From Octopus sinensis (Eukaryota), in NCBI RefSeq assembly GCF_006345805.1, contig NC_042999.1:139686001-139750000 (forward strand): a DNA stretch of 64,000 nucleotides, in the 5' to 3' direction. Below the pieces are notes generated by a model. That model was not told the origin of the DNA. It searched no databases and worked only from the letters and a program-made list of their open reading frames with translations. Within the stretch, counting starts at the first letter, position 1. Each line of letters starts with the position of its first letter. Positions 8,147-61,198 of this stretch are shown here, piece by piece. A program made the position numbers and the translations under genes.

Positions 8147-8425
8147 CAAATTTATTTCTGCTGCCTGTGTCAGTTGGATACATTTTGATGTCGGTTGTGA
8201 AGCTTCAGCTGCCCGTTTTTGTCGCTTTTTAATTCTGTCTAGGGTTTTTCGCCTAGAAGTCTTTTCAGGAGTTTCTGTTGCTCGTATCAGTTGCATTCTG
8301 ATTCTGTTTTTGGTCCTTCGTTCTGCAGTCTTCTCTGCCGTTTCTACTGCCCGCAAGCTTCGCATTCTTCTTGCACTGTCTTTCCGTCGTTGCTCAACAC
8401 TCGTAGATCGTGATCGAGGCATCAT
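8147..8425 (-). CDS. Variable first exon C-V2: STPR-like 23-aa repeat DNA-binding module (93 codons)
   Basis: ATG at 8425. Two exact 23-residue periods, RAVETAEKTAERRTKNRIRMQLI and RATETPEKTSRRKTLDRIKKRQK. Phase-0 donor TTG|GTTTGT at 8147 is compatible with acceptor 6209. Confidence 0.72.
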
Positions 8426-9504
8426 GAATGTTGAACGAAGGATTGTTAAGGGGTTTGGAATTAAAATTAAGAAAAAATAACATAAAATGAAGATTCTTCA
8501 CCAATTTTTCACTGAAGAATCATGCGTGTTGAAAAAAAACTTTGTATTTCAACAGTTTTACAGTGAAATGCTAAAATACGAGTTGACAAAGAAATTCAAA
8601 GGTTGTTGGAAAGTTCAACATAAAATTTGCATATGACTAAATAGATGATTTTTTAAATAATAATCATGGTTATGAAAAAGAAAGTGAACAAAATGAAATA
8701 CTTATAGAAAATAGTGCATAGAATTTGAATGATGGCAGGCGAATCAATCGTACTGTAGATCGTTGTAGGATATAAATAATATAAGCACTTGCTTATCGAG
8801 AAATTTGTAAGTTCGATTAAAAAAAAAAATTTTAAGTATCACTGTTACGAATTATAATATCCTATCATTAATTCCTTTCTACAATAGTAAATAATAGATA
8901 AAAATATAGATATCTTATTTTGTACTGAGTACGAAAATGCGGCATAATGTCAAATGACGTTGATAGATGGATACTGTCTATATAATATAATATATCATAT
9001 AATATAAAACAACGCGTCTAAGGCGTTGGACGGTAGGGCTTAACGAATTAGACGGCGAGCAGAAATAAAGTTTGAATACAATTTGTCATAAACCAGATAC
9101 CCATTTTCTGAAAGTTATGAGGGAAAAATGTAGTTATGCCACATAATACATGTTTTTATGTACTAGTAATAGAGTTTTGTGCTGAGAACATACCAAAACA
9201 ATGCATACCCTATGTGTACATAAATTCTTTTGCAAAATATCTGCAGAGTCAAAACATTTTGATTCACTGGTTTGCCAGTTTTGAAGATAATCAACCCAAA
9301 ATTAAATGAGCTCAAGCCATTCACCCAATGAATATTCCTGCCAAATTTGATGAAAATCTGTTCGGCCGTTTCTCAGTAATTTTGCAAACACACAAACAAA
9401 GATGAGCAACTACTACAATACCCTGCTTTCACCAACGCGTGCAAGGTATAATTGTTTTGGGATGTGGACTAAGATGTCTAATGTATGTAGCAACAGTATA
9501 ATTT

Positions 9505-10487
9505 TCTTGCAGGCGGAGGGAAAGGACATGGACCGCACTCCATTTCAATTTTTTTTTTTTTTTTTTTTTGCTTTTTTCTTCAGAAAGCCATTTTTCGACT
9601 GCGGGGAATCCGAATCTGCAAAAAATATCAACATTTCAAAATTTTAATTCACCCCCACCCCTACTCTCCAATTTTTCACCTTTTTTTAGAAATATTTTTT
9701 TTTTTGCCGAAATACATAGAAAATACGGAGATGATGATTCTGAAAAAAAAATTTGTAAAATTTCAATTTTTCAAAAATCAATGATCACCCCCTCCACTCT
9801 GCCAGCGCATCTGTGACAGAAAGTAAACATGTGGTTGAGGGTCTTTTGGGATTAAGAAAGGTATGTAAAAATTATTTTGTTTTGCACACACACGACAACA
9901 AAATGATATTTAAATTTTTTTTCTTTTTTGGTAATTCGTATTTAGTATGTGGATCTTCGGTTTGGCTTTTGTTTCTAGCTTGTCGGACTTTCCGGTTGGA
10001 GCGTATATAGAAATTGAAGATATTGAAAACCCCCAAAACATGTTTTCAAAATTTTAATTTTTCCCCTCTCCACCCCTCTGGCAAAGAAAAAAGGAGGTGG
10101 GGGAAATTAAAATTTTGAAAACGTGATTTATCGTTTAGCTGCTGTTTCTAGCAGTCGAGTTTAGATACTTTTTACGTCTGCTATTTTAGTACGAGAGGAG
10201 GGATGTTTATTATTATTATTTTTTATTTCTTGGAAAATTGAAATTTTACAAAATTTTTTTCAGAATCATAATCTCCTAATTTTTCTACGTATTTCGCAAA
10301 AAAAAAAAAAAAAAAAAAAAATCTGAAAAAAGTGAAAAACTGGGATTTGGGGTTAAAATTTTGAAATGCCGATTTTGGCTGGCAGATTCGGAATCTCTGC
10401 AGTCGAAAAGGTGGGTTTCTATAGAAAAAAAAACAAAAAACCGAAAGGGGGTGCGGTCCATGTCCTTTACCTCTGCCTTCAGAAAAA
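9505..10487. mobile_element. Foldback/MITE-like element with about 260-bp inverted arms
   Basis: 9505-9770 (aggcggagggaaaggacatggaccgcac...) is the reverse complement of about 10225-10487 (...gtgcggtccatgtcctttacctctgcct). Additional internal inverted repeat at about 10040-10125. Confidence 0.8.
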
Positions 10488-11650
10488 CCCAAGTCTTTGT
10501 GATGTAATTTTGCAAATGTTAGTTTATACATGTTTAGTTAACGCAAAAACTGTGAAATTTAAACTTTGAGTGTCTTTAAATGTTTAGTTACATGCTGTTG
10601 ATGTTTTGGAGATGTAGTGCGAGACTGTTTACTCAATATTTGTAACAATTGCATTTTGGTGTGCTGAAGGAAAGTAGATCACCATGTCCCTATGTGTATG
10701 TGATATGAATGCAGAAGATTGAAGAGAAGAAAGATACACTCATCATAAATGATTTATGTGTGTGCGAGAGAGTGGTTAGACATTGCTATAAGTAGGTCAT
10801 TAAAGTACAAAAAGAAGAATATAGGAGAAATAACCGAACCTTGAGGTACATCAGAGGTGGTAATGAGTCAATAACTTTGGCAACACTTCTGGTAATGTGG
10901 CAGTCCAAAAAGAAATTTTCAGTCTTAGAGATGAGACAAATGCAGTCCATAGGAGTAAACTTAAGTAGTTTTCACTTGAAGTATTTGCTGATGTCAATGG
11001 CAACAACATTGCTTACACCAAAGTTCTCAAGAGTGAGAGATGAGTAGTGTATTAAGTGGGAGCAGATGTCCAACAGATCTGGTTGTATGGAAACTGTGCC
11101 GGTAATCACTGAGAAAGGAAAGAAATTCAATATGATAAAAGAAAGTTTTCTCACCTTTCAGATATTGAAAGTGAGGGCGATTGGTTGAGTGCTTTTTATC
11201 AAGAAGACTTCTTTTATGATATTAATCCATAATCTAATCAGAAGAGTAAGCAATGAATCTAAAGGAGATTATACATGATTAAACTGACTTTTGTGAGCTT
11301 CAGCAGGCTCAGAATCTGTTAAATTCCTTAAAGTCCTGTGACAATTTTGAAATTACTAAACCACTTTTCTCCTAAGTTCACTTTGGCATACTTCAGTTAT
11401 TTCATTCAAATTGTGCCACCCCCAGAACTAATATCATTAACATCACTGAATTTGCCAGCAGGACAACTGAACAATCTATAATGTTCAACAGTTAGATAGT
11501 CTTATGCATCTGATAGATCTAATACTTCGATTTTCAGAAAGCCTGCAAGAGCCCTCACTGAACCCTTTTATCTACCTTCTTTTTCACTGGTTACATAGAA
11601 TCAGGGCCCAGCTGATTTCCACCTGGCATATTAAAGTTTTACATGACACC

Positions 11651-11752
11651 TGTCAAAATATTTTCGTCGCTTTGAGACTGCGACCTGTTCACTGACAAAA
11701 TACTGTGTCAGTGAATAAGTCGCGGTCTCAAAGCGACGAAAATATTTTGGCA
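11651..11752. repeat. Near-perfect 47-bp inverted repeat (hairpin)
   Basis: 11651-11697 pairs with 11706-11752, with 4 mismatches and an 8-nt loop. Confidence 0.9.
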
Positions 11753-13922
11753 AATTAAATTTTAATGTTGGAGTGAATCTAACGGTTTTTGTGTGTTTTT
11801 TAAACGGCTTATAAACACCTTCCACGCTGCAATTGTTTTCATTCCAGCACACGATCTCAGATCAGGTCACTTGCTATGCAAGAACATCTCCGTAATACAC
11901 ACACACACACACACGTATATATATATCAAGAGCAACCGTGTGACCATTCAATCCTTGTTAACTTTTTGTGATTTCAAAACAATTGTTGCTGTTCTGTGAG
12001 AATTAGACCATTAGCTAACTCCAAGGTGATTATCAAGGATTATGATGAAGACTGAGAATAAACAAAATGGGTATTACTGACTCTCATTTTGCTTTTAGCA
12101 AGTTCATTGTTGATCTAAACAGCTCCAACATATTATTATTTAGTACCCACAAGACTACATATTATTTTTCAGTACCCACAAGACTACAAAATGTTGCACA
12201 CTGTAAAAACCTTCCTTCAATAAACAAAGACAAAAAAGGGTCATCATAATCCTCATCATTTCAACGTCTACTTTTCCATGCTTGCATGAATCAGACAGAA
12301 TATACATCGAGGCAGATTTTCTAAAACTAGATGCCCTTCTTGTCACCAACCCTCACATGTTTCCAAACACAGCAATATTTCCTTATGTCCGGATATATTT
12401 TTCATGGAAGATTGTAAACAAATGACACCACTTGTACGACGACGACGACATTTGTTTACAACTATCGCGCTGTATCAAGATAGAGATACATGCACGCGCG
12501 AGGGTTGTACTGAAAGTGAGAATAAGCTTTTTATTAACTGATGTAGGGCGTTCAACTTGCACAGGCTGATAAAATAACACTTCCTCAGAGTAATTCTTCC
12601 TAAATACCCTGCTTCGTTATTTTTAATCATGCTATGTTATTAATCATATAGTACCTATTTTATATATCAGAGTTGAAGTTTGTTTAGCACACTCTGTTCA
12701 GTATCTATGGGTATGGCACGAATAAAAATAATAATGGTTTCTGATTTGGACACAAGGCTAAAAATTTCGAGGAGAGGGGTTTAGTAGATACCATCTACCT
12801 CAATATTTGACTGGTACATTATTTTATCGGCCCTGAAAGGACGAGAGGCATAGTTGATCCTAGTGGAATTGAACTCAAAATATAAAGAACAGGAAAAATA
12901 CTGCTAAGCATTTTTTTCTTGACGCTGATATGATTTTGGGGACAAACAAACATTAGAAACAATACTAAACACAAACAAGTAAACATGGGCACAAATTTTA
13001 CATTAAAAAATTGCAAGATTAAACAGGTGGATCGATGATTCTTTTCCATCTCAAACTGATGCTTACATTGTCTAATAACACTTTACATATAAAATCTTAA
13101 CAGCTGATTCATTCATAACAAAAACAGTATTCCCCAAAAGGGCTCGTATTTACAGAAGAGTGGGAGACGTGTGACTTTCACCTATTTTGTTACTAAAACT
13201 ATTTACACTTTTTCATAAGGTAGTAAGTAATGATTTATAATTTTTTTTAAAAGAGCAACTGTCACCGATTACTCAATGCTAATGAAACGAAAGCATCCGA
13301 ATTTTAGAATAACATTATGCAATCAAACATGAAAGCTTCTATTGAGAAGTTATGTTTTAAAATTTTACCCTACCTTCGATTATGCAAGGTGATATGGTGT
13401 TATCATTGTAAAGTCTTGTTGAGTAAACATTACAATTATTAATATTTAGAGTTAAGCTTTAACTGTAGATCGGCTAGTTAAATTCTTAGAAAACTAACGA
13501 ATAAGGAAAATGTCTCCACGAAAACAAATTTAATCGCATGAAAATATTCAGAGTACTTTTGGTTTCTTTTGATCACCCTCGTGTATGTACAAGCAAAAAT
13601 CTTCACCGTCTCAATAAATTGAAATCATTGACGTACATTTAAGCATAATGGAAATTACAAACCAATTTTTGAATGTAGGACTGCTTCCCCAAACATTGAA
13701 ACATAACTATATAATGTGAGAAATCCTGCAAAAGCATTTCGCTGACTTATCACAATTGAATGTAGATGTGGGCCAAATTATTTTAATGATTGTGGGTGGG
13801 ATATTTGGAAATTAGAACGAAAAACCAAAACTAAAACAAAAAGTGAAAGTGAGGAAGAGAGCATGAAACGTTAACCTCATATCTCTCTCTCTCTCTTGCC
13901 AGGACGTTAAGGTATACGTTAC

Positions 13923-14093
13923 CTTAATCTCGCCAGAACGTTTCTGTCGTCTTCTCTTTACAGCTGTTTTTCTCATTTGTTCTAGGCGCTTCTCTCTTTT
14001 TTCTACAGTTTCTCTCTCCCTTCTGTCCCTTGCTCTCAAGGCATCTGCCGCACGACGCTCTTCGTCTGTAGCATATTTCCTTGGCCTTCCCAT
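13923..14093 (-). CDS. Variable first exon C-V1: AT-hook plus STPR-like basic helix (57 codons)
   Basis: ATG at 14093. MGRPRK is AT-hook-like and RETVEKREKRLEQMR resembles an STPR unit. Phase-0 donor AAG|GTAACG at 13923. Confidence 0.72.
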
Positions 14094-24187: not shown

Positions 24188-25165
24188 TCATACTGGCAGT
24201 TGCACTGATGATAATTGTTTTCTGTTCCTTCCAGCTGTAAAATGTCCTGCAGGATACACACTTTTATTGCCACCAGATGTCGCCATGTTATCAAATGACT
24301 GAATTGTTATAGTTCGATTTTGTGGTTTAGAAGGGTTTTCTCTTACAGGGTTAGATGGGAAACACATTTTCTTTTCAGTATGCAATGCAAATTCTAAGTT
24401 AGAATGTAAAGAGCTTTCAAATGTATTAGATTTTAACTTAGATGATGTTCCACGTGTCACATTTGTTATTGCTTTGCTGTGTGTGGTATCTAACAATGGT
24501 AAAACAAATTCTGAAGTGGATGCATCCTTACAGTTCAGCATGGTGCTTCGTGTCTGAGAACTGTTTGAAACTGGAATGGATGAATAGAACTTACTATGCT
24601 CATATCTGCTTTCCTCAGGTTCCATAGGTTCATTCTTCACTGTGGGAGCCATGACAAAATTACCAGAGGAATTGATATCTATGTTATCTAATAAGGCAAC
24701 CTCAGAGTTGTTTCCAAACAATGTAACTCTATTTTCTTTGGGTAATAATTCAGCTCTTGAAATCTTGTCATTAATACCACTGGATGATATTGAAAAGAAA
24801 CGTGGAGAAAGCTGAACTGGTGTTGTAACATTTTGTGACACAGATACATTATCTGTCATTGGGTTGGATGCAACAAATGCATTAGTAGCTGTAATAGGTT
24901 GCTGATGTGTTGTATTAGGCAGTTGACTATCACACAGTTGTTCAAATTCTTTCATTTCCAAACGTTTTGCAATGATTTTTAATTGATGTAAAATATTTAG
25001 ATCAAGATCTAGAATCCCATTATACATATAATCAGCAAAAGCATCTAAGGCTTTTGTGCTAACTTCCTGTGGTAAGTTAATGTGGAGAAAGTTCTGAGAG
25101 AGCATCTCTGCACCAAATACTGACAACAGTTTAGGACATACAGCAAATAAGACAACTTTATGTAC
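24188..25165 (-). CDS. BTB gene B, constant terminal exon
   Basis: Acceptor tttcag|GTACAT at 25165 (phase 0). Reads VHKVVLFAVCPKLL...AFADYMYNGILDL. Stop at 24188. Confidence 0.88.
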   Translation of the reverse strand, partial: VHKVVLFAVCPKLLSVFGAEMLSQNFLHINLPQEVSTKALDAFADYMYNGILDLDLNILHQLKIIAKRLEMKEFEQLCDSQLPNTTHQQPITATNAFVASNPMTDNVSVSQNVTTPVQLSPRFFSISSSGINDKISRAELLPKENRVTLFGNNSEVALLDNIDINSSGNFVMAPTVKNEPMEPEESRYEHSKFYSSIPVSNSSQTRSTMLNCKDASTSEFVLPLLDTTHSKAITNVTRGTSSKLKSNTFESSLHSNLEFALHTEKKMCFPSNPVRENPSKPQNRTITIQSFDNMATSGGNKSVYPAGHFTAGRNRKQLSSVQLPV

Positions 25166-26738: not shown

Positions 26739-27033
26739 CATCACTGTAGATAAACCATTGTCAATACTAGCATCACATAATTTTCCACTCTTCCATAGCA
26801 ATGCCAGGCTGGACATTACATTTTTCTGATGATCAGCAAGAATAAATATTTTCTTCCCTTGAGGCTGTGGTATTTCAAAGGTCTTTGGTTGTGTAGTAGG
26901 TACTGGAACTGGAAAGGTAGAGAAATGAACTGGATCTGGCATATTTTCTGACTCCTCAACCACACAGATAAGGTTTTTGATTGAAGGTTTCTGAGAATTT
27001 TCAGCCATCTTAGAGATATGACCAATATTTTGC
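26739..27033 (-). CDS. BTB gene B, constant exon 2
   Basis: Acceptor tttcag|G at 27033 (phase 2). Reads DHQKNVMSSLALLWKSGKLCDASIDNGLSTVM. Donor ATG|GTAAGT at 26739. Confidence 0.88.
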
Positions 27034-27127
27034 CTGAAATTCATTGAGATAAAAATTATGATAAATGCATGAACTCAACAGAAAATACTTGCATAGTAAG
27101 AAGCTATGACAAAATTTATTTAGTTAC

Positions 27128-27327
27128 CTGTCAGTAAAATCATTTTCTTGACAATTTTTCTTTAATTTCAAATTTTCTTCCTGAAATTCCTTGGGAAAAG
27201 TCTGCTTCTTAGGAATTTTGGCAGGTGGAGATGGAGGATGGTCACTGTCTGAGATAAGAACTGTAGCAGGAGAGCTGGGAGGTTGCTTTTTTTTGTTTAA
27301 ATATAAGTTTTTATTTGATGATCCAGC
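27128..27327 (-). CDS. BTB gene B, constant exon 1 (not in the ORF track)
   Basis: Acceptor ttgtag|GCT at 27327 (phase 0). Translates openly as AGSSNKNLYLNKKKQPPSSPATVLISDSDHPPSPPAKIPKKQ..., homologous to gene A AGPSN...SPAKIQKKQ. Donor AG|GTAACT at 27128 (phase 2). Confidence 0.85.
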
Positions 27328-30311: not shown

Positions 30312-30749
30312 CAAGTTCGCAATTTCTGCTCTCTTTTTAAATTTATGAAACCAACCTTGACTAGCCTTAAATGGACGAATTTCGTAATCTGAACTACGGG
30401 GGAAGCTTTTCTTCACATGTTCATAAATCTCTAGGGCTTTTTCACGAATAACTTCCATATTTACTTGGTCCCCCTTCTTTTGCTTTTCCTTTATCCACAT
30501 TAACAAACGCTTCTCAACTTCGACTATGAAAGACCTGTTTTTAAAGACTCTGGTTGATTTATCAATTACCTTCACAGATTTTAGTCTTTCTTTTTGGGCA
30601 CATATGGTTGCAACAGTCGAAGGGGGAAGCCCGTATTCAGCACAAAGAACTCTTCTTTTAAAGCCTTGTTCGAATTTGTTGATAATTTCCTGTTTTTGTT
30701 GGATCGTTATGACTTTGCGCTTCGTCTTTGTTTTGGGTTTAGATGACAT
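30312..30749 (-). CDS. Variable first exon B-V2: CENP-B/Tigger-type DNA-binding region (HTH_psq plus HTH_Tnp_Tc5), 146 codons
   Basis: ATG at 30749. Reads KRKVITIQQKQEII...YGLPPSTVATI, EVEKRLLMWIKEKQ and FKASQGWFHKFKKR. No DDE domain follows. Phase-0 donor TTG|GTAAGT at 30312. Confidence 0.85.
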
Positions 30750-33574: not shown

Positions 33575-34750
33575 GTCTAGTTGAGTTGCAAAAACAAGAA
33601 CAACAAGTGTTACATCAACAACTGCTACAACTAATTAAGTTAGTAACAAAACTGGAAAATACATTTTCGCCAGACCAAGCAGCAAATTCAATAAATGAAT
33701 TTAAATATGACCCAAAAGAAGGAGTCACCTTCGATGCATATTACCAAAGATTTGAACAAATTTTTGAAAAATAATGCCAAGACTGGATGGACAAAATGAA
33801 AATGTATCTAATTCTGAGGAAACTGGCAATGACAGAGCATACTAAATACTGTAACTTTATACTGTCTAAAAAAAAGTTTCTGACATAAATTTCCTGGACA
33901 CAATTGACATTTTATGTAGGATGTTTAGTGAAAAAACATCATTGTTCAACACACATTGGAAGTGTTTGAACACCGAGAAAAGAGATGCCGAAGACTTTAC
34001 CACACATGTGGGTAGAAAACTGGATAAACCAACTCCAGACTTGTTCAAGTGTCTGATTTTTGCTCAGGGACTTACTGCTAAAAAGGACGCAGAAGTCAAA
34101 ATGAAAATTCTCACAAAGCTGGAAATGAACCAGGATATAACTCACCAGAAACTGCCAGAAGAGTGTGATATAATATTAAAAATAAGGCATGACACAGAAG
34201 AAATCCAACGCAGAGATTGTTTACAAATAAAACCAGTGTGGAAGAGTCAGATGGCTAAAGAATTTCACAAAAAACATGATATATAACAGGAGATAAGCCT
34301 ATGGATGGCATGCTTTTTTGAAAAGAGTGTTTGTTCAAAAAAGTAAAGTGTTTTCATTGAGGGAATACAGGACATATTAAATCGCACTGCAGAACTAAGA
34401 TGATGAAAAACTGGACCAATCAAAAAAAATAAATAGTTTGCCATCAGAGAAAAAAATTTGTACAACATTGAAAATTCATCAAGGTGAGAATCGAAACCAC
34501 TAGTGTCAAAATGCAATTAGACATGAGTAGTGACATCACCATCATAAATGAAGAAACATGGCAACAAATCAGTAAGCTGAAATTATTTAAATCAAATAAA
34601 GTAACATATGGTGTTACAGGAAAGAAATTATATTTCATCGGTGAATGTATTTGCAATGTTACTTTTCGAGGTGAAACAGAAAGGACAATCAGTTATGTGT
34701 TGAAAAAAATCACTAAACCTATTTGGCACAGAATGCATGGAGCAAAGCAA
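33575..34750 (+). mobile_element. Ty3/Gypsy LTR-retrotransposon gag-protease remnant
   Basis: FKYDPKEGVTFDAYYQRFEQIF, DLFKCLIFAQGL and a degenerate aspartic-protease motif MQLDMSSDITII, broken by stops and frameshifts. Confidence 0.7.
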
Positions 34751-35499
34751 CTTACAGGCTCTCTGAGACCAATGAGATTCATGCCATTAGTTTTCCTCTG
34801 GAATACTATATGTGATGCATATGGACAAGACCAGCTGTGTAAAGAAGTGCTAATCTCTAACTGTGAAGGGAACCTATGAAAGAGGTAGACCCAGAAAGAA
34901 ATGGGACAAGGTAATGGAGCACGATCTTCGAATGCTGGGATTCATGGAGGTAATAACAAGTGACAGAGACCTTTTGTGACATGCTGTGCTTGAAAAGACT
35001 CATCAAGCCAAGTGAAATTATAGTCGTGGCTGTTGCTGGTGTCATGTAAATGGCACCCATGAAATTGTAATTGTGACTGTTGCTAGTAACATGATATTCA
35101 AATGTTGGGCCTCACAGAGGTGATGAAAAGTGACTGAGACCTTGATGATATGCTGTGCTTGAGAAGACTCATCAAACCAAGTGAAACTGTAGCTGTGACC
35201 ATTACCAGTGTCATGTAGATGGCACCCATGAAATCGTAGTCACAGCCATTACCGGTATCATGTAAATGGCACTCATGCCAGTGGCACGTAAAAAGCACCC
35301 GTTACACTTTTGGAGTGGTTGGCATTAGGAAAGGTGCCCAGCTGTAGAAACCATGCCAAATCAGACTGGAACCTGATGCAACTCTCCAGCTTACACAGTT
35401 CCAGTCAAACAATCTAACCCATGCCAGCATGGAAAGCAGACATTAAATGATGATGGTGATGATGAAGTTAGTCAAATAGTCAGAGATTAAGAGAAATTT

Positions 35500-37399: not shown

Positions 37400-40300
37400 A
37401 CAGCAAATGCAATGTTGAGCTCCTGAAGAATCTGCATGTAATCAAGCTATATGCATTGCACTTACAGAAACACATCTATCTTCAGGCATAAATGATGTGG
37501 AGATACACATACCAATGTATGCTATCTTCTGTAAGACAGAAGAAAAAGAAGTCACAGTGGAGTTGCAATGTACATCCGCAAAGTTGTCATACTATTAACC
37601 CTATTATTGAACTGAAACTCAGTGTGTGACACACTCATAGTACATCTAAAACAACTTGATATAGTGATATGCACACTATATTGCCCACCTGTTGCCTCAA
37701 ATCATGATGGAAAATTTGAGGAAAGCCTCAGTGCAATAAAAGAAGTACTAACACAATTGGATTAATGCACTACTATATTCCTGATGGGTGATTTCAACTT
37801 CCCCAACATCAGGTGGCCTGAGGGCAATATAACCCCAGGAATGATGCACAAAGAGTGAAATCAACAAGAATCTCAACCTGACCTTATGAGAAAGCTATTC
37901 ATGGAGCAGATCATACTCTCTTCAACCAGGCACAAAAATATCCTGGACCTCTGTTTAACAAACAATGTGGAAATTATCCACAATGTAAATATATCAGTCG
38001 ATATTCTCAGACCATAATATGATAGAACTGACAATGTATGGCCTGGAATTAACTAAAGATAAACTCTGCACAGATGATGCTCACACACTATCCAGCCTAA
38101 ATTTCTATGAGTTTGACTGGAAGTCACTTGAAAAACACACACTCCAGCAAGACTGGCCTAAAAGCCTCTCTATGCAAGACATAGATATGAAACTCAATAA
38201 ATTCATGTCAATAATGTGAGCCATATGCATTAAATATCAGGTCATCCCATAAGCTCTGTCCGAATTTTGAATAAAGAAAACAAGTGATCAAATGTTATAT
38301 TTAATTGAAATTTAATCAACGTAATTTCCTTGATTATCTATGACTTCATTCCATCTATTTACAAGCTTTTAAATCCCATCAATGTAAAACTCTTTTGGTT
38401 TCAAAGCGAAGAACTCTGAAATGTCAGTTTCGACCTCCTCCTGGCTTGCAAAAGTTATGTCCCCCAAATGATTCTGTAAACTACGAAACAAATGGTAGTC
38501 TGAAGGAGCAAGGTCGGGAGAGTAAGGTGGATGAGGAATTTTTCCCAACCAAGCTTTTCAATCTTCTGTGATGTGATCTTTGCAGTGTGGGGTCGCGCAT
38601 TGTCCTGATGAAACATCACTCCTTTTCGATTAACTAAAGCTGGTCTTTTTTTTCTTCAAAGCTTGGTTCAAACACTAATTGCTGATAGTAGACTTGAGCA
38701 TTGATTGTTGCATTAGATGAAAACAATTCAAAGTGAATTACTTCTTTGCAATCCCACCAGATATTGAGAAGAACCTTTTTCCCATGAAGGTCCCTTCTCG
38801 GTTGTGGTTGAGCTTTTTCCCTTTTACCAAGCCACTGTTTACGACATTTAATATTTTGATAGAAGATCCATTTTTCGTCACCAGTCACAAGTCTATCCAA
38901 AAAGGGTGAAAAGTGTTCATGAGAATGGAAAGAAGAGCAGATGGCAACTCGGGGTTTGCAGTTGCTTTCAGACAATTCATGAGGCACCCAGTTTCCAAGT
39001 TTAGGAACCTTTCCAAGTTGCTGAAGATGATGATGAACAGTTGTATTGTTTGAACTAAGCTTTATTGCCAATTCTTCAACTGATAATGCAGGATTTTCTT
39101 CAAGCAATGCCTCAAGGAGCTTATCATCAAACTCAACTAGACGTCCTGTTTGATCTTCAACTTCAAGGCTGAAATCTCCACCACTGAATTTTGCAAACCC
39201 TCTGCTGCAAGTTCTTTCATTCAAGCATTCTTTCCCATAAATTGAGCGTATGTTTCGAGTTGCTTTGGCTGCAGAGTTTCCTTTTTTGTACTCATAAAGC
39301 ATTATGTGCCTCAAGTGCTCTTTGGATACTTCCATGTTAGAAAGGGTTTTAATCAAAGAAATTTTAATTCTATTATTCTGTAAAATAATATTTAATAAGT
39401 TTAAATGTACACAAATGCATAAAAATAATTTTTAATTCCATTAGACATTCTAAAATACTATTAAATTTCATTCAAATTTAAAAAAGGTAAAATCAGACAG
39501 AACTTATGGGATGACCTGATATATTCCAGAGAAGAGAGCCAATACACAAAAAAACATTCCCCAAGACAGGAGAATACTCATGTTGCAGAGAATAAAGATC
39601 TTGAATAGTTTAAACAAACACCTTAATGACAGCTTGAAATCCCACTTGACAGAGGAGCTCTTCGAGAGACAAAATAAATTCAAACTCTCCCATGAAAAAG
39701 AGAAACCTGGGCAGTCGAAAATATAAAAAAGAAATCCTAAAGCCTTCTACACTTTGGTAAAGGAGTCTGCCTCAGTACGCTATGAGATAAAAAATGGCTC
39801 ACTAATTGCAGACCTGGGGAAGATAAGTAAAGCACTAAATAAACAATTCTGAAGTGTTTTCACTTCTCCACAGGAAAATATGCAAACAAACAAGCTGAAG
39901 GAGTTTTCGAATGTAATCAATCTATTCGGAAAAGAGGCAATAATCGATTACATCAACATAACAGAAGAGGATGTAATATCGACCATTGATGAGATGAGAT
40001 CAAACTCAGCAACAGGCCCAGATGGACTCGCAGCTGTTCTCTTAAAGACATGTGAAAAGGCTCTTGCAAAGTCACTGTAGATACTCTTTAGAGTTTCTTT
40101 GCATGTGACCAACTTCCCAACATGATAAAAGAGGGTATATGCCCTGTCCATAAAGGAGGGAACAGAGCAGATGCTAAGAACTACAAGCCCATCTCTCTGA
40201 CCTCACATGTTAGCAAGGCAATGGAATGCATTGTCAGAAAAAGGCTGATAACGCTCCTAGAAGAAAACAACCTTCTCACAAACATGCAACATGGCTTCCG

Positions 40301-40760
40301 TCCAGGGAGGAGCTGCCTCACACAGTTGCTGCAGTACTTTGACCGGGTACTGAAGTAACAACTAAACTAGTCAGCTACAGACATAATATACCTCGACTTT
40401 GCCAAGGCCTTCGACAAGGTTGATCATGGCATGACATGTCACAAACTGCGAAACCTTGGTATTACTGGGAAACTAAGAGTGGCTGCATGATTTTCTGAAG
40501 GGCAGGAGTCAGATAGTTGTAGCCAATAGTGCTCAGTCTGAAGAGACACCAATTCTCAGCGGAATTCCATAGGGAACTATACCAGGGCCACGATTATTCG
40601 TGATAGCCCTCTCAGACATGCTTTCCGCTGTCTGACCAGTTATGCTGACGACACAAAAGTATCACAGGCAGTTAGGAATCCGGAAGACATCATAAAACTG
40701 CAGAAAGACCTGAACAAAATCTACAAACAGGTTAACAAAAATAACATGCGGTTCAATTTT
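37400..40760 (+). mobile_element. CR1-type LINE ORF2 (APE endonuclease plus RT), decayed, interrupted by a mariner
   Basis: MGDFNFPNIRW, NILDLCLTNN, SDHNMI, SATGPDG, NYKPISLTSHVSKAME, QHGFRPGRSCLTQLL, YLDFAKAFDKVDH and YADDTK. Confidence 0.85.
38237..39519 (-). mobile_element. Mariner element (about 1.28 kb) nested in the CR1 LINE; transposase frameshifted
   Basis: TIRs tcaggtcatcccataag / cttatgggatgacctga with TA TSD (38235-38236 and 39520-39521). ORF 38634-39356 has WVPHEL and VTGDEKW. The downstream frame carries HQDNARPH and YSPDLAPSDYHLF. Confidence 0.92.
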
Positions 40761-41169
40761 AGGCATTCAAAGTATGAGTTTATTGTATTGGGACACACTT
40801 ATTAAATACGTTCTGGAATAAAAAATTTATGTATTGTTATCGAAAAACTGTAACTGGTAAAATGCAGAATTATCAGAGTTATGGACAATGAAAGTGTACA
40901 TGCATCAACAAAGTGCAACAATAAGGTTTAGCAGTTCAAAACTGTGAGTAGTGAAATGCAGAATTAGGTTCGCTGAATCTGGAATCAAAAATTATGTTCT
41001 GTCATCAGATATGTTTAACTGGAAAAATGCAGAATTATTGGAGTTATGGGCACTGAAAGTGTACATGCTACAGCAGAAGACACATGCCAAGTTACCACAC
41101 AGTGGGACTGAACTGAGGACCATGTGTCTTGGAACCAAGTTTGTTACCACACAGCCACACCTGCACCTA

Positions 41170-41405: not shown

Positions 41406-41407
<2 letters not shown>

Positions 41408-43510: not shown

Positions 43511-43885
43511 TTTGTTCGTTTGAAATATTTCCATTTGTCGCCATATCCTGTTTGGATTTTCGTTTTGGGGTAGGGAACTTGCTGTTTCTTGGGGGAAAGC
43601 TGGTGTACAATTCTCAGTTATTGTTCTCGCAACTTCTGTGTTGTTAGCTCCTGCTGTAATTTGTTGTATTGTTTTGAGAACAACGTTTCTACAGGCATCT
43701 TGTGGATGAGAATGTGGTGGTGGATCATACTGCAGAACATCATCAATTGTTTTGAGTCTTGCAGCGCATGTTTTTCTTTCTTCACATTTCCAGTATGTAA
43801 TATTATTTTTCTTCTTATCAACAGTATAAGCGTACCCATTATATAGTAATTTCCTGCCGCCACGTTTAGTAAGAGTGAATTCCAT
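43511..43885 (-). CDS. Variable first exon B-V1: FLYWCH zinc finger (125 codons)
   Basis: ATG at 43885. FTLTKRGGRKLLYNGYAY...YWKCEERKTCAARL...HSHP fits the FLYWCH consensus. No MULE catalytic domain follows. Phase-0 donor AAA|GTAAAC at 43511 (weaker consensus). Confidence 0.8.
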
Positions 43886-54515: not shown

Positions 54516-54680
54516 TTAAAACAAAATTACCTAGTCATTGCACACTACTTTTCTTCAAAAACGAAATCAAGACAGATATTTGTGAAAATGTTTTTAATAC
54601 AAAAATACAACTTGATCCATCAAATATATATATATACACACACACGCATACACACAGAAGAAAATGTACTCTTTTTCATA

Positions 54681-55745
54681 TCAAGTAAGACCATCTGTTT
54701 TATATAAACCTATATTTTTGACACTGGTAACTTGTGATGATGATAATGGTAAACTGTCCCCTCCTGCTGTAAAAAGTCCTACAGGATAGACACCTTCATT
54801 GCTACCAGAAGTCACAATGTTGTCAATTGACTGAGTTGTTATAGTTCGATTTAGTGGTTTAGAAGGGTCTTCTCTTATGGGACTGGACTGAGAACACATT
54901 TTTTCTACAATACATGATACAGGGGATAAATCAGAAACTAGAGAGCTTTCAAATACATTAGATTTTAATTTAGACGTTCCTTGCAATACATTTGTAGTGT
55001 TGCTATCTGTGGTGTCTGAAAATGGTAAAACAAATTCTGAAGAGGACACAACCGTAGAATTCAAACCGGTACCTGGTATCCGAGAACTGATTGATACTGG
55101 AGTAGATGTGTAAGACTGATTATTCAGTTGACCATACCTGTCATCTTCAGGCCCTACAGGTTCAGTTTTCACACTGGGAACAATAACAAAACCACCAGAA
55201 GAATTGCCACTTTTACTAGCATCTAGTGAAGCAACCTCAGATTCCTGTCCAAAGACAGCTGCTGTATCTTTCTTAACTTGTGCTAATTCAGCCTCAGATA
55301 TCTCTTGTTTAACATCAATGACTTGTGTAGTGACAGATGGAGTAGAGTGAGATGAAACTGATGTGATGGATGATGAAGGCAGAGATGGTTGAACTGTTGG
55401 AACTGTAATACTGGGTGGGTTTGATAGAATGGTCTGCATCTGGCTGAGATCACCAAATACAGTAACCGTTGAAGCTGGTTGATGAGGTATTGTGCTTGGA
55501 AGACGACTATCACACAGTTGTTCAAATTCTTTCATGTCCAAACGTTTTGCAATGATTTTTAACTGATGTAAAATATCAGGATCAATATCTAATAGCCCAT
55601 TGTACATATATTCAGCAAAGGCATTTAAAGCTTCTGTGCTAACTTCTTCAGGAAAGTTCACTTGGAGAAACTTGTGAGAGAGGATATCTGTACTAAATAC
55701 TGACAACAGTTTTGGACACACAGCAGACAGGACAACTTTATGCAC
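54681..55745 (-). CDS. BTB gene A, constant terminal exon
   Basis: Acceptor tttcag|GTGCAT at 55745 (phase 0). Reads VHKVVLSAVCPKLLSVF...AFAEYMYNGLLDI...LKIIAKRLDMKEFEQLC. Stop at 54681. Confidence 0.92.
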   Translation of the reverse strand: MHKVVLSAVCPKLLSVFSTDILSHKFLQVNFPEEVSTEALNAFAEYMYNGLLDIDPDILHQLKIIAKRLDMKEFEQLCDSRLPSTIPHQPASTVTVFGDLSQMQTILSNPPSITVPTVQPSLPSSSITSVSSHSTPSVTTQVIDVKQEISEAELAQVKKDTAAVFGQESEVASLDASKSGNSSGGFVIVPSVKTEPVGPEDDRYGQLNNQSYTSTPVSISSRIPGTGLNSTVVSSSEFVLPFSDTTDSNTTNVLQGTSKLKSNVFESSLVSDLSPVSCIVEKMCSQSSPIREDPSKPLNRTITTQSIDNIVTSGSNEGVYPVGLFTAGGDSLPLSSSQVTSVKNIGLYKTDGLT

Positions 55746-56103: not shown

Positions 56104-56407
56104 CATCACAGTAGATGAGCCATTACCAATACCAGCATCACACAACTTTCCACTTTTCCACAGAGATGCTAGATTGGACATGACACAACGCTGATGATCA
56201 GCAACAACAAATATTCGTTTTTCTCGTGGTCGAGGTTTTTCCACAGGCTTCGGTTTGGGTTCACTTATTTGAATTGGTGGAGCTAACACTTGAACAGGCC
56301 TTGTAATATTTTGAGAAACCTGGGCCACACTCATATGCTGCTGGACTGGCATTTGAGCTTGTAGTGTTTTTGCAGCCATCTGAGATACCTGAGTGTTAAC
56401 CATTTGT
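56104..56407 (-). CDS. BTB gene A, constant exon 2
   Basis: Acceptor tttcag|A at 56407 (phase 2). Reads DHQRCVMSNLASLWKSGKLCDAGIGNGSSTVM. Donor ATG|GTAGGT at 56104. Confidence 0.9.
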
Positions 56408-56494
56408 CTGAAATTAAAATTTACATTTTAGAAGATAATCACAAGTGATGTTCAAAATTAAGAGGCGAAAAGACCAATTAATCATCATACATAC

Positions 56495-56730
56495 CGCCGG
56501 TCATCAAATCGACGATTTTCGAACCTCCGTTCCTGGAAACGCTGCTCTTGGAAGCGTTGCTCATCAAAGCGTCGATCATCAATTTGTTTTTTCTGAATTT
56601 TTGCAGGTGAAGGTTGAGGAGGTGAATCATCTGGAATGAGCACTGGTGCAGACGAGACAGTGGCAGCAGCAATCTTTTTACGCCTAGGGTTCTCAGGCTT
56701 TCCGGAATATACTTGATTTGAAGGTCCTGC
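56495..56730 (-). CDS. BTB gene A, constant exon 1
   Basis: Acceptor ttacag|GCA at 56730 (phase 0) and donor CG|GTATGT at 56495 (phase 2). The three exons sum to 1605 nt, an open frame of 534 aa plus stop. Confidence 0.88.
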
Positions 56731-57353
56731 CTGTAAACACAAAGAGACTATTTGAAGAAAAATAACAATTGCAATTTCAGGGTGTACTAAAATGCCAAAA
56801 AGTTAAGCTTTGCCTTGCTTCTCTGAATGAATATGTCTATTTTGCAAAACAAACTTATAATATTCTTGTAGCCACTCATTCAGTAAGAAATAATTAGTTT
56901 AAACTATTATAACCCCTACTCCTATCCATAGCTAGTTTCCTTACCCAAGACCTCAAAGTTTTTTGAGAGATATTGACCCAATAATCTGACTGGTACTTAT
57001 TGTTATTAAACTAGCACTGAACAAACTACTTCACTATTCTTCACAGAAGATACACCTTTCCGTGAACAATTGAACATAAAACAAATGAAAAGTATAAAAA
57101 TAAAATGTTGGAATAAAAAAAAAAAAAGTTTATATCATAATCAAAAGCGAAATAAATTAGTCAACATCCATAGTGCAATGGAGAACAAATCTAAGTTCCA
57201 CGCCAGCAAATAAAAAAGAGAAATAGTGAGGAAAAAGCAGAGAACGGTAACTCTCTAAACAATAAAAATACATATATATGCAAGTTGTCTTAAAAAATAT
57301 GTTAATGTAAACTGAAGTCGACCATTCTTAATATCCTAATTGAAATTACTTAC

Positions 57354-57713
57354 CTTTAAACTTCGTGCTATACACTTGGAATGTAGTTCAGATTTCTCGT
57401 GCAGAAGAAGTTTACTCTTCCTATGGCTGGATCCCAAGTCAACACTACCTTGGACCCAAGCATTTTTTAAAGCAGACCTAGTGCTGGAGAACCAATACTT
57501 CTGGCAGACAGCACAGCTAGCTAGCGGATTTTGGTTTGGACGCAACTGTACCAGTAACCAAGGATAGGTTCTCTGAAGCTCGTTCAAAGAACTAAGCGAC
57601 GATTTCGTATACCTAACACTTTTGGGGATGAAATGAACACTACTTTTCTGTGCCAGGACTCCAGTGCTATACGTCGTGTTGTTATTAAATAGGAAACTCT
57701 CTGTATTGTCCAT
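57354..57713 (-). CDS. Variable first exon A-V4: TTF-type (hAT-associated) zinc finger, 120 codons
   Basis: ATG at 57713. YPWL...CAVC...AWVQG...KLLLHEKSELH fits the ZnF_TTF/C17orf113-like pattern. Phase-0 donor AAG|GTAAGT at 57354. Confidence 0.8.
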
Positions 57714-57995
57714 TTTCCTTGAATTCAAATTCAAAGACAAGCGTCCTATATAAAAATTGTTTCTGAGTTAAAAGGTAATAGAAGTGTGTTGATTTGTAAC
57801 TGCCATCTTCCTATCAACCCAAAGATTTACACAATAGAAAATAAAAATTTAAAAATAGATAAACACAGCAGCAATATTACTGAGGATTGTGTCAACAGAA
57901 TTCGAATTACGACGTAAAGAAATTATTTTGAAATTATTAAATTTCAATATTTAAGCTGTCAGATGAATATTATATATATATCCTTGACCACTTAC

Positions 57996-58448
57996 CAGGG
58001 GCAGTTTAATGGAATCGATCAGCGGCAAAGGTATGTGGCGAATCGTATTATCACAAACATTCCGAAGCAACCCGAACGGAGAATCTCCGTGGAATTCCGA
58101 GGTTGCAGTGAGGGTGGAGCTGGACGTCACACTCGTCTCATTCTGAAATCTGACACTGTTGACGACAGACTGTTCAAATTTGTCATCGGCATGAAATGTA
58201 CTAGAAGCACTGCTACTATTCGACCCGACTTTCTCCGGTAGATTTGTTTCACAAAAATCCTCAATGCCCTTAACACAATTCCTGATTCGACTTACAATCA
58301 ATTTCACGATAGGCTCATTAAATCTGTGCTTTGAACGTAAATGCTTCGGTAGGTTGCGAAATTTACTTAATACAGTTAAACACGATCGAACAGGGCACTG
58401 AACACTATCCTCAGAAGATGGGCCCTTAAACTTCCGAACAAAAACCAT
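57996..58448 (-). CDS. Variable first exon A-V3: single C2H2 zinc finger, 151 codons
   Basis: ATG at 58448. CPVRSC-x12-HLRSKH. Phase-0 donor CTG|GTAAGT at 57996. Confidence 0.75.
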
Positions 58449-59405
58449 CACAAATTACAAAATTTGCTTACTGCAGCGGGCGATTGAAGCTTTACTTATT
58501 GAATGAAGAGAAAGGGTGGAGGGAGGGAAAAGCAAGCTACAACTGAATGGTGAAAAACTAGTTTGATGAAGAATGGAGGGAAGCAAAATTTTAAAAAAAA
58601 GTGTAGAAGCTGGGACGGGCGAAATGGGGGGGAAAAAAAAACATTGAAAATATTCCATAAAAACGAGAACATTAAAATGGCGGCAGGTTGTGAACCTCGT
58701 GTTCATGAATTAGTGAGTGGGTATGCTATTAGATAGAAAGGAAGACTAGTTCTCTAGTAGGAAGACTGCTGCTGTGACTTGTCCACTGGCAAAGAAAGCA
58801 GTCTGAACAACCAATACGATAAGAGATCAGCTACTGACGACCGACCAACAGAAAGATATTAGAAAGGATATGCTACCTACATCTCATCATTGTGACAAAC
58901 CTAACACTGAGACAGGCCAGACGTCGACCACAATAGCGAAGAAAAGTCCTTTCAGCCCTAGAAGGTGAAACTCCTTTAACAATCTTACGCACAGCCGAAC
59001 AACACAGAAAACAACTTGTAATCCTACGCCAACTGGCAAGTGCACGAAGCTGCAAAGGGACCAGAGAAAAGCTTTGACAACGCCGCACTATATAATTTAA
59101 TTAGTGATTTTATTTCCAACCAAGTTGTGAACAAACCCACCTCTGATCGAAATGGAATAGCTCCGCTGCTCCCGAATATAATAAAACAACTCTTCTTTAA
59201 TTTGCGAGCACGTCATTTTGTATGTAATTATATATACACGCACACAATTATTAAACAAAATTACAAAAAAATGAAAGTTTCATGACAAAACAAAAGTACA
59301 AAAACAAATTGTCATAAATATTTACAAAGCAAGAATGTGATAGTCTTTAATAACATTACTAAATGTGAGAAACTCCTGAAACTGACAATATTTTTACCAA
59401 CCCAC

Positions 59406-60407
59406 CTGCAGTAAATATGATATTCCTGATTGTTGAGGTAAGTCCATATTATAAATCCTTAACGTAGAAATTTGCGTGGTTCGCAGACAATGATTTGTGT
59501 AGATCTGAGAACAACCAGCCTCTCGAGAAATCTCTTTCATTCGAGTTCCGAGAGTGTTTTTACCAATTGGCATGTTATCATACCATGGAACTTCATCTGG
59601 ATTCACATTCTGCTTACTTCTTTGCCAAAAAGCATCACAGAGTGGATTTAAGAGGTTAATGTATTTTTTGAAAGAAGTCAGCGGGCACCATTTATTACCG
59701 GGTATTTCATACATGCGTACTTCATTAACAGGAGGATCCCCATTGCTGTTCAGCTCAGCTCCAACCCGAAAGGTAACATATTGCAGACCCTGAGGTGATA
59801 ATTCAATACTGAAGTCTCGTTTCGAAATCTCCCGCAGATTATCGCGCCCGCGGCTACACATATGCAACATTAAATCCATGAATACCTTATTTTGCAAACC
59901 TCGTGGTTTGTCCTGATCCAGAGCGGACGATAGCATAATTTTCTGTATATCTTCCTCTGTAATAGGATTCTTACGCTTAATAGCATCCTTGCCCATTGCC
60001 CTCAATTTCATCAAAATTACACTGAACACTTCATTGGCTTCAATGAATTCGTCATCTGTTATAATATCTAAATGCGACATTCTCTTGAAGTGACGCTGTA
60101 AACCGTAACGCAACGTAATCATCGATTTCCGAGCATAGAGTTTACCACTAACTTGGCGCACCTCTGTGTAGAACTTTTGCAGAAATCGGCTTAATTGTTG
60201 AGCAGGCTTTTTTTCTAATAAAGATAAAGTAGTGTGTTGAGTTCTACAATAGTCCTTTAGAATTTTGACAGCACTTTTGATAATATTTTGAGTTCGTAAC
60301 GATTCATCTAAATCGATAAGCTCCACACCGTTCATACGGTTTGGAGAAACACATGCTTTAGGGTCTTGTGCTTCTGGTTGAGAATCGCCTAGGCTGTTGG
60401 ACGCCAT
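59406..60407 (-). CDS. Variable first exon A-V2: DUF3504 / Crypton tyrosine-recombinase-derived domain (KCTD1/ZMYM/QRICH1-like), 334 codons
   Basis: ATG at 60407. Reads FLQKFYTEVRQVSGKLYARKSM..LRYGLQRH, GLQNKVF, RGRDNLR, CPLTSFKKY, WYDNMPIGKNTL and YTNHCLRTT. Phase-0 donor CAG|GTGGGT at 59406. Confidence 0.87.
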
Positions 60408-60590
60408 GTTGAGTGACAGAATTAAAAAATAATTATATAATGAAATCTATGAGCATTCAGCAATAACTGCTAGCTTTTGACTAAATATAGAACCATACAG
60501 TGCAATAAAATCGGCTGCAGTAACGTGTGTAAAGAATTACGTTAATGATACTATGATGCAAAAGCTGTTTCCACTCTCATATTTCTCCCA

Positions 60591-60730
60591 CCGCCATTTT
60601 CCTGTATTACACTTATTTCCCATGGGGAACAGTAGACTATTGACCGACAGTAGTAAGTCCACGTGAGATGCACTAGCCAATGAGAACATCCGTAGTCATA
60701 GTTCTAGCTATTACACTATTACATGGCAAC
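60591..60730 (-). promoter_or_regulatory. Putative promoter of exon A-V2
   Basis: YY1 consensus CCGCCATTTT (60591-60600), E-box CACGTG (60660-60665), CCAAT (60677-60681) and a half X-box ATGGCAAC (60723-60730), all 180-330 bp upstream of the ATG. Confidence 0.45.
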
Positions 60731-60925
60731 TAATAGCTAGGTAATAGCAAGAGGAAGATCGAGAATTAAGCTACCGCGAAACAATATATTTCGAGAAGCC
60801 AATTACTGAATAGCAGACTCATCCAATCGAAAAAATCGCAGCAGATGTTACAATGTCTCTAGAAAACAAAAACAAACAATACAAAAGAAAAAAAAAATAA
60901 ATTAAAAAAAAAAGAAGCAATTAAC

Positions 60926-61198
60926 CTGGTAACAATCCAATAGCGGTATAGGGTCAGGGTGCTCCGGAGTGGGGCCGTTCTTACCAATAAAATGCAAGCT
61001 ACATAAATATGTCCATGGTTTGATGTTATTAACAGTGAAGTATAATCGACCGCAAGCTTTCACCCAACGCTGACACTTCGCTAAGTCTTTGTGTGGTTTA
61101 GGGAATGGAATCCACCAGACCCCTTTCATTTGCGGTCGGTTAGGATAGCGGCTATCACTTTTACAGGTACCATAGCTACAATGACGATTGGCCGGCAT
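60926..61198 (-). CDS. Variable first exon A-V1: THAP zinc finger, 91 codons
   Basis: ATG at 61198. CSYGTC...IPFPK...RWVKAC...LCSLHF...PDPIP gives the C2CH THAP signature with P, W, F and P. Phase-0 donor CAG|GTTAAT at 60926. Confidence 0.87.

Follow-up and report, generated by a model that had tools for sequence, protein, structure and literature searches.

Twenty-nine variable exons of ten domain types upstream of the constant exons of an octopus BTB gene

How does a gene for a BTB protein come to be preceded by a long series of exons for unrelated DNA-binding-type domains, several of them of kinds known from transposases, and what might such a gene do? The question is raised by a stretch of 64,000 nucleotides of Octopus sinensis (assembly GCF_006345805.1, contig NC_042999.1; C3:139,686,001-139,750,000), hereafter the window, which holds three BTB units (genes 1, 2, and 3) with three constant exons apiece. 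Beyond the window (above 64,000 or below 1), positions on C3 are counted in window-equivalent coordinates, and all variable and constant exons described sit on the minus strand. A preliminary description had read the window as a single locus working as a trap, in which each transposon landing upstream in sense orientation donates its promoter and N-terminal DNA-binding exon to a BTB effector, possibly creating a repressor of that same transposon. The exons it named were all found on the minus strand where it had placed them; rather than forming a single locus, they feed three different BTB genes, and most of the array lies beyond the window. What the locus probably represents is an old octopus-and-cuttlefish family of BTB genes whose alternative first exons likely have promoters of their own and are spliced in frame to a shared body of linker, BTB, and tail, likely giving many transcription or chromatin factors.

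Variable exons and their joining to a shared body

Placing the N-termini of RefSeq isoforms and scanning open frames located 29 variable exons upstream of the constant exons of gene 1 (the main gene; RefSeq LOC115209932/LOC106877732), over ∼185 kb, out to ∼240,000 and mostly beyond the window. They are of ten domain types: 14 encode THAP, three CENP-B/Tc5, three DUF3504, two Brinker, and two psq domains, and FLYWCH, an IS630/Tc1-type helix-turn-helix (HTH), C17orf113, C2H2, and an STPR-like domain have one exon apiece. Three small shared exons (C0a, 80684-80779; C0b, ∼151064-151113; C0c, ∼207863-207902) split the array into four tiers, in each of which the donor phase fits the next shared exon: it is 0 in tier 1 (10/10), tier 2 (9/9), and tier 4 (4/4), and 1 in all six exons of tier 3, matching the phase-1 acceptor of C0b. 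Four THAP exons end after the third zinc ligand, and C0a (L032:6684-6779), which resembles the tail of the window THAP exon, gives the final histidine; because these half-exons get their last ligand from C0a, it is splicing that completes their fingers. With one exception, the located exons each consist of one frame without introns, which is the usual form of transposase 5′ ends. Two further open frames were dropped from the 29, at 167844 (low CpG, no fitting Pfam match) and at 143553 (no notable donor, no match), and a search of 514 kb failed to locate the THAP exon belonging to isoform X4 of O. bimaculoides (P0043). On the minus strand within gene 1, at 142.8-143.6 kb (L053:8804-9553), there is also an open frame of 250 amino acids with repeated LERDLEKW-like units and no Pfam match.

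Contig joints and RefSeq isoforms show a single variable exon joined to the shared body. RefSeq-type isoforms, the numbers of which reach X36 for gene 1, fix 25 of the 29 junctions, and a contig joint fixes that of the TTF-type exon; the DUF3504 exon at 59406-60407 belongs to isoform X3 in three Octopus species (P0002, P0021, and P0022). In contigs from four runs (guessed to be RNA or of unknown type; read depth was not used for ranking exons), the E1-E2 and E2-E3 joints had GT..AG ends in all four, and the TTF-E1 joint (56729-57353) had them in three, all being among the joints listed, next to which 66 further joints exist. Loose ends at the E1 acceptor (56730) corresponded to C0a in two runs; in a third, a mixed line at the same place was explained in 30/30 letters by C0a together with the THAP exon at 65855 (next pair, 24). 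Two contigs end at the DUF3504 donor (59405) with 26 unaligned letters. Since the located exons are all on the same strand and upstream of the constant exons, cis-splicing suffices to account for the isoforms.

The shared body carries a BTB domain that matched PF00651 only and not the KCTD type (T1), and no KCTD chain was among its 28 solved matches; the best of these were IVNS1ABP, ZBTB18, SLX4, and BCL6, and the BTB of Drosophila CG6765 ranked last. No family member scanned had a match to BACK or Kelch. Residues 474-602 of P0002 were predicted to form a homodimer (0.84 versus 0.01 for the best control), a mark reached by 17/29 eukaryotic solved pairs and by 0/30 single chains. In the model, contacts of residues 479-481 with 564-566 fit a strand swap, the runs agreed in at least 87% of contacts, and the pLDDT (predicted local distance difference test) score was at least 85; because BTB dimers are well solved, this pass may merely echo solved structures already known to the predictor. 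Across paralogs the tail contains, by eye, several copies of V/I-K-x-E and ends in a YPVxL-like motif, from which SUMO-linked repression by the tail might be guessed.

The features of the window are collected in Table 1. Every window exon opens with an ATG and closes, between two codons, at a GT, which fits the phase-0 acceptors. In the THAP exon at 61198 and the FLYWCH exon, one other GT outscores the in-phase donor; the FLYWCH donor is pinned by its RefSeq isoforms, and that of THAP 61198 is putative. For the C2H2 exon, Pfam and Atlas gave weak leads only. Pfam had no match for either STPR-like window exon, and an STPRs match is present in first exons of paralogous BTB genes; the STPR-like exon at 13923-14093 was joined to gene 3 in none of the isoforms seen. 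The mariner is in sense orientation and falls between the FLYWCH and CENP-B exons of gene 2; its status as an exon is putative. On the plus strand, the upstream region of gene 2 also contains a fragment that looks like gag/protease of the long terminal repeat type (33870-34876) and one that looks like reverse transcriptase of a long interspersed nuclear element (40092-40802; RVT_1 match at 40092-40355).

Table 1. Exons of the three BTB genes, and a mariner element, in the window.
Feature	Position	Strand	Evidence
Gene 1 variable first exon, THAP zinc finger, 91 amino acids	60926..61198	-	PF05485, E 1e-7
Gene 1 variable first exon, DUF3504 Crypton tyrosine-recombinase body, 334 amino acids	59406..60407	-	DUF3504/QRICH1, E 6e-4 / 2e-5, below cut-off
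Gene 1 variable first exon, single C2H2-like finger, 151 amino acids	57996..58448	-	RefSeq P0004 joins to E1
Gene 1 variable first exon, C17orf113/TTF-type zinc finger, 120 amino acids	57354..57713	-	PF25431 (zf-C17orf113), E 8e-4, below cut-off; Atlas 0.94
Gene 1 constant exon E1, linker, phase-0 acceptor	56495..56730	-	Joints and loose ends at 56730; isoforms converge
Gene 1 constant exon E2, BTB start with N-terminal extension	56104..56407	-	Contig joints, 4/4 runs
Gene 1 constant exon E3, BTB core, S/T-rich tail, stop	54681..55745	-	PF00651; predicted homodimer
Gene 2 first exon, FLYWCH (Mutator type)	43511..43885	-	PF04500, E 5e-13; RefSeq P0011/P0065
Whole decayed mariner, 34-nt terminal inverted repeats (TIRs; 91%), HTH_48, Transposase_1, DDE core	38234..39522	-	Pfam and TIR search
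Gene 2 first exon, CENP-B_N + HTH_Tnp_Tc5 (pogo/Tigger type)	30312..30749	-	E 6e-9 / 1e-14; RefSeq P0048
Gene 2 constant exon E1b, phase-0 acceptor	27128..27327	-	Sequence; P0011
Gene 2 constant exon E2b	26739..27033	-	Sequence; P0011
Gene 2 constant exon E3b, BTB core and tail	24188..25165	-	PF00651
Gene 3 candidate first exon, STPR-like, 57 amino acids	13923..14093	-	Duplicate of gene 1 exon at 73340 (dN/dS 0.16)
Gene 3 first exon, STPR-like, 93 amino acids	8147..8425	-	RefSeq P0051 joins to 6209 acceptor
Gene 3 constant exon E1c	6031..6209	-	Sequence; P0051, P0059
Gene 3 constant exon E2c	5655..5916	-	Sequence
Gene 3 constant exon E3c, BTB core and tail	3698..4588	-	PF00651, E 2e-8

Promoters, age, and origin of the variable exons

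With the mosaic methylation of invertebrates, high CpG can be read as marking unmethylated promoters within a methylated gene body. The ratio of observed to expected CpG over the 700 bp upstream of 36 candidate ATGs had a median of 0.92, compared with 0.33 in a background of 3000 random windows (p = 1e-11), and ranged from 0.13 to 0.67 in the constant exons. It was above the background median in 34 of the 36 regions, the exceptions being those of the internal psq exon and a dropped frame. The starts of the cDNAs (complementary DNAs) compared, from the supplement of PMC10027918, were, by eye, colinear with the DNA upstream of their own exon, with no common leader. Each variable exon thus likely has a separate promoter, to judge from base composition and cDNA starts.

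The ratio of nonsynonymous to synonymous substitution rates (dN/dS) was 0.08-0.16 in those five of ten duplicate exon pairs whose dS was unsaturated. All of the 22 exons compared with O. bimaculoides were 87-100% identical, next to 98% for the constant exon, and one THAP isoform is in common with Argonauta (94%). Two cuttlefish-type proteins, P0186 (THAP) and P0314 (FLYWCH-like by eye), have an identical body of 698 amino acids, which is 96% identical to that of Sepia P0305; their lineage and that of octopuses split ∼270 million years ago. Octopus and cuttlefish-type N-termini are 82% (THAP) and 78% (DUF3504) identical. By these sequence comparisons, the variable exons are old and under purifying selection.

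A search of the 2.7-Gb genome gave 24 matches to the BTB exon, 12 of them in the tandem run to which the window belongs, five at C3:141.9 Mb, and the remainder as singles on C23, C14, C24, C16, C2, and C11. The C16 locus has its own small array, with three FLYWCH frames, one CENP-B-like frame, and two DUF3504 frames, and CG-1, ZSWIM3/FAR1, and STPR first exons occur elsewhere in the family. In a paralog at C3:141.87 Mb (L036:8707-9870), a near-whole IS630/Tc1-type transposase (HTH and DDE_3) forms an internal exon, which is present in RefSeq models P0082/P0083/P0156 and in which the first catalytic aspartate looks replaced. In the next paralog downstream (P0049/P0060), an STPR-like frame enters an E2-type BTB start without an intron (L030:4836-5381). 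Ten representative hits, a sample insufficient to prove a coleoid-only design, included five clusters named outside cephalopods, among which a Lymnaea protein alone has an internal BTB of this sort, with no DNA-binding domain by Pfam. In this protein (P0207, Lymnaea stagnalis), which is possibly a gastropod relative of the family's ancestor, the distant internal BTB carries an N-terminal extension resembling the one in paralog P0221/P0231; P0221 itself, tried as a non-cephalopod relative, proved to be another cephalopod paralog.

Where the domains came from differs between exons. The best other matches of the CENP-B exon at 30749 were at most 44% identical over most of its length, many with stops, and the two relatives inspected closely carry DDE_1 behind the match. 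A tree of CENP-B exons with transposases, a check proposed in the preliminary description, placed it, among 33 rows, with 16 decayed pogo copies and one other exon (support, 96/91). The ten CENP-B/Brinker-type exons required five changes and formed a single clade in 0% of 200 bootstrap trees. A pogo origin of the window CENP-B exon is supported, as is a Mutator origin of the FLYWCH exon at 43885, whose best near-full genomic matches were 41-50% identical; three of four relatives inspected show remnants resembling Mutator-like elements (MULEs) by eye, one with a weak Pfam MULE match. The DUF3504 exon at 60407 keeps R-H-R, has lost the catalytic tyrosine, and ends 29 residues past the histidine of HxxR with no aligned GH..Y motif; on this alignment it is a Crypton recombinase body without its catalytic tyrosine. 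Its seven nearest relatives are 28-34% identical, two of them in the gene 1 array, four upstream of BTB matches on C23, C16, and C2, and the seventh, on C24, matching BTB isoform P0221, whereas free Crypton-like copies are just 21-22% identical. Two near-identical long Crypton-like frames (L191 and L192; C12:31.14 Mb and C4:133.65 Mb), of which the C12 copy keeps an R-H-R-Y-type tetrad, suggest a recent Crypton family in the genome.

For the other exons searched (THAP, STPR-like, C17orf113-type, and C2H2), no transposon relative was found in the genome. The only genomic relatives of THAP 61198 were the four split-THAP exons of the gene 1 array, the TTF exon is single-copy with no relative outside the locus, STPR 14093 had one exon of gene 1 as its sole relative, and the genome search gave no close relative of CENP-B 156128 outside the locus. 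HTH 72324 is 100% identical in O. bimaculoides, its nearest near-full genomic copy being 54% identical with four stops. A P-element origin of THAP 61198 and a hAT origin of the TTF exon were dropped, the genome holding no relative of either beyond the locus; so was a Helitron origin of the window STPR-like exons, which had no match to window Helitron frames and no relative outside the locus. Three downstream BTB paralogs with STPR-like first exons are each preceded, in the sense orientation, by a decayed Helitron (L022, L024, and L026; C3:139.60-139.65 Mb) whose N-terminus is similar by eye, which is circumstantial. Taken exon by exon, several superfamilies contributed, yet much of the array arose by local duplication; by sequence, about half of it is THAP, partly duplicated in place.

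The preliminary description had derived the exons from several transposon superfamilies, which agrees with the CENP-B/pogo and FLYWCH/Mutator evidence; the links from THAP to P element, TTF to hAT, and STPR to Helitron have no direct evidence. Its Crypton assignment of DUF3504 stands, but not the removal of a catalytic part, the exon being the recombinase body itself, with R-H-R kept and only the tyrosine lost. Its survey of real exons had omitted the C2H2 exon, which has no shown transposon link. It had also seen no DDE core or TIR around the exons, and indeed 15 catalytic or full-length queries revealed no catalytic-domain remnant beside the window CENP-B or FLYWCH exon, and no TIR-like arms were found around window exons except AT-rich chance pairs (target-site duplications were not searched); a whole mariner is nonetheless present at 38234-39522. 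Transposase-type domains fused in frame to BTB accord with the proposed donation of N-terminal exons, whereas a separate landing of each exon is not supported, as the relatives of THAP and STPR 14093 are array exons and those of DUF3504 include exons beside BTB paralogs.

Two younger transposons in the gene 1 array bear on whether exons are still being gained. At 209.3-210.8 kb (L060:5300-6800) lies a whole Tc1, one of >150 genomic matches, with 235-nt TIRs and a frameshifted DDE half. Its DNA-binding half of 140 codons is open and has 12/420 differences against a column yardstick, compared with 52/598 behind it (p = 1e-4); the ratio of 0.33 is below the 0.49-1.35 of all 17 control copies with intact tails (six of the 23 copies, having broken tails, were left out), and the copies for comparison had been selected by similarity to the array copy, which favors the latter. 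The proportion of synonymous to nonsynonymous changes (6/6 versus 170/547) differed marginally (p = 0.045). The open half ends at a phase-0 GT in a phase-0 tier, where 9/24 rows share one GT donor context, of which the array copy has a stronger variant. This Tc1 is possibly a candidate exon whose capture is in progress, judging by its sequence. A mariner-type element at 85.8-86.6 kb (L033:1770-2560), just upstream of a psq exon, appears a weaker candidate: it has TIRs, an internal deletion, and an open frame for DUF4817, and shows the fewest changes of 19 rows and no stop, but its donor is weak and its 9 synonymous and 15 nonsynonymous changes are not significant (p = 0.15).

Capture, host-gene origin, or artifact

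The route that would best connect these observations begins with DNA transposons of several superfamilies inserting in sense upstream of a BTB body, where an in-phase donor would have cut off the catalytic part; the array would later have grown largely by local exon and gene duplication. The choice of promoter would then determine the isoform. Given the predicted strand-swapped BTB dimer, isoforms could pair and thereby combine two specificities, and the proteins would now mainly serve host targets, as mod(mdg4) variants do, and not living transposons. As an account of how new domains enter, the trap of the preliminary description is plausible, with one live candidate. A bolder version holds that coleoids own a still-working capture platform, in which several BTB loci would take up the 5′ end of any sense DNA transposon with an in-phase donor (Tc1 being an ongoing case), and promoter choice and BTB dimers would create a combinatorial, cell-type-specific code, written in pairs of transposon-derived DNA-binding domains, that regulates transposon-derived sites; this is conceivable, but must be called tentative.

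That the array serves as an active anti-transposon trap, its captured domains bringing a BTB repressor to the inverted repeats of their own transposon family in the style of KRAB-transposase fusions, appears unlikely. There are precedents, as four such fusions repress reporters with cognate TIRs (bioRxiv 2020.05.07.082677) and some mod(mdg4) variants repress HeT-A (bioRxiv 2022.01.16.476534), according to the parts of these preprints consulted, and the two young TIR-bearing elements of the gene 1 array are in sense with open DNA-binding frames, the Tc1 with its DNA-binding half better preserved than the rest. These two, however, remain candidate exons, whereas the fixed exons are conserved and not fast-evolving. 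An arms-race repressor of cognate transposons is disfavored by their age, by purifying selection (dN/dS as above, with the high identity between the two Octopus species), and by the same design in cuttlefish; the nearest mostly-aligned relatives of CENP-B, FLYWCH, and HTH 72324 are only ∼40-50% identical or little more, free Crypton-like copies are more distant still, and no close relative of THAP 61198, TTF, STPR 14093, or CENP-B 156128 lies beyond the locus. About as improbable, if marginally less so, is an origin of most exons from host transcription-factor genes (THAP, C2H2, psq, CG-1, FLYWCH, and CENP-B-like) by exon shuffling and duplication, their likeness to transposases being ancient history. 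C2H2 and CG-1 first exons do occur in the family, THAP makes up half of the array, some of it as local subfamilies, and the DUF3504 exons beside BTB paralogs on other contigs (31-34% alike) are closer than free Cryptons and may thus trace to few old events. Against this stand the grouping of the window CENP-B exon with decayed pogo and the scatter of its type over the bootstrap trees, the MULE remnants in the nearest relatives of FLYWCH, the paralog whose exon is a near-whole transposase with DDE_3, and the intronless frames. Very little speaks for annotation artifacts, or read-through noise that joins small genes and transposon relics to a BTB gene: some RefSeq models of the downstream array appear spurious, P0013 beginning within a repeat-like frame and P0051 jumping to a neighboring BTB unit, but the tier-specific donor phase, the dependence of four THAP half-exons on C0a, the contig joints, purifying selection, and the same design in argonaut and cuttlefish largely refute this explanation.

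Several points nevertheless weigh against alternative first exons of transposase descent. Three of the 29 junctions (THAP 61198, STPR 73340, and Brinker 182696) are assigned by phase alone, and several exons use a GT other than the top-scoring donor. What RefSeq provides are gene models, none of the runs is recorded as RNA, and contigs are blind to start sites; DNA binding, dimerization, and regulation by the isoforms are predictions. High CpG also marks young transposon copies (0.84 for the array Tc1). In model P0045 a small exon precedes the THAP exon, and psq 240118 is internal, so variable exons are not strictly first in all cases. The transposon rows of the pogo tree were chosen by likeness to CENP-B 30749, with no host CENP-B, TIGD, or Jerky genes among them, and 14 of the 29 exons are THAP, the one searched having no transposon relative.

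If alternative first exons of an old BTB family are nevertheless the correct reading, one gene likely acts as dozens of transcription factors, and transposase capture becomes a reusable gene design instead of a set of scattered single events. Part of the published "THAP/Psq/CENPB expansion" in Octopus would be isoforms of one gene, which changes the count of cephalopod transcription factors. The site would hold a graded series, from exons in common with cuttlefish to a whole Tc1 that is maybe under capture now, so that the emergence of a transcription factor together with its binding sites could be tested by existing methods, in an animal that serves in work on brain evolution.

Comparison with known systems

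No description of the locus was found in the open-access literature searched. The same proteins were treated by Mukherjee and Moroz (2023; PMC10027918), whose supplement, in the part consulted, mentions LOC106877732 11 times and XP_014782 accessions 18 times. There, the octopus THAP-, CENPB-, Psq-, and FLYWCH-BTB proteins are each given a gene of their own (Thap1-13, Psq1-2) and interpreted as gene expansions that arose from "BTB/POZ transposons"; the main text never uses the word "isoform." A screen for domain co-occurrence found BTB with an integrase zinc finger in vertebrates and, in the part consulted, leaves molluscs unmentioned (PMC12062965).

In tetrapod host-transposase fusions (KRABINER, SETMAR, PGBD3-CSB), a transposase DNA-binding domain is spliced to a host regulatory domain and kept by selection; 8/9 cases use an acceptor before the transposase, with one event per gene, and "BTB" is absent from the main text as consulted (bioRxiv 2020.05.07.082677). 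The octopus exons, judged by sequence, have the trait of these fusions, a transposase-derived domain (CENP-B/pogo, FLYWCH/MULE, DUF3504/Crypton) spliced in frame to BTB, with purifying selection on the captured part; in the octopus, however, the donor is inside or after the DNA-binding part, and captures pile up in one gene. A precedent is vertebrate KCTD1b, an isoform with N-terminal DUF3504 and C-terminal BTB that arose when a Crypton, contributing DUF3504 as one exon, inserted ahead of a BTB gene, the catalytic tyrosine being lost; KIAA1958 a/b has two alternative DUF3504 exons (PMC3212892, as far as consulted). A DUF3504 exon is common to all three, in KCTD1b likewise without the catalytic tyrosine and ahead of BTB, but one or two events there contrast with 29 exons of ten types in octopus gene 1, whose BTB is not of the KCTD type. 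The incomplete R-H-R-Y tetrad also separates the window exon from an active Crypton recombinase, the tetrad being kept in the free C12 copy, and the missing BACK and Kelch matches separate the family from Cul3-adaptor BTB-BACK-Kelch proteins.

Clustered protocadherins and UGT1, like gene 1, have tandem variable first exons spliced to constant exons. Their exons have promoters of their own and encode paralogous versions of a single domain, in enzymes or membrane proteins, whereas the octopus gene joins unrelated DNA-binding domains to a nuclear-type scaffold by way of intermediate shared exons. Among Drosophila BTB loci, lola is of the same type as mod(mdg4). The latter has 31 variants with an N-terminal BTB, 27 of them with FLYWCH, and variant-specific binding (bioRxiv 2022.01.16.476534, in the part consulted), and thus resembles the octopus gene in combining one BTB gene with ∼30 isoforms that each have their own DNA-binding-type exon. 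In octopus, ten unrelated domain types in four nested tiers replace a repertoire of mostly FLYWCH, and the choice is likely made by promoter and not by 3′ or trans-splicing. The variable part is N-terminal, with BTB behind it; the design was apparently reached independently of insect mod(mdg4), in mirror image.

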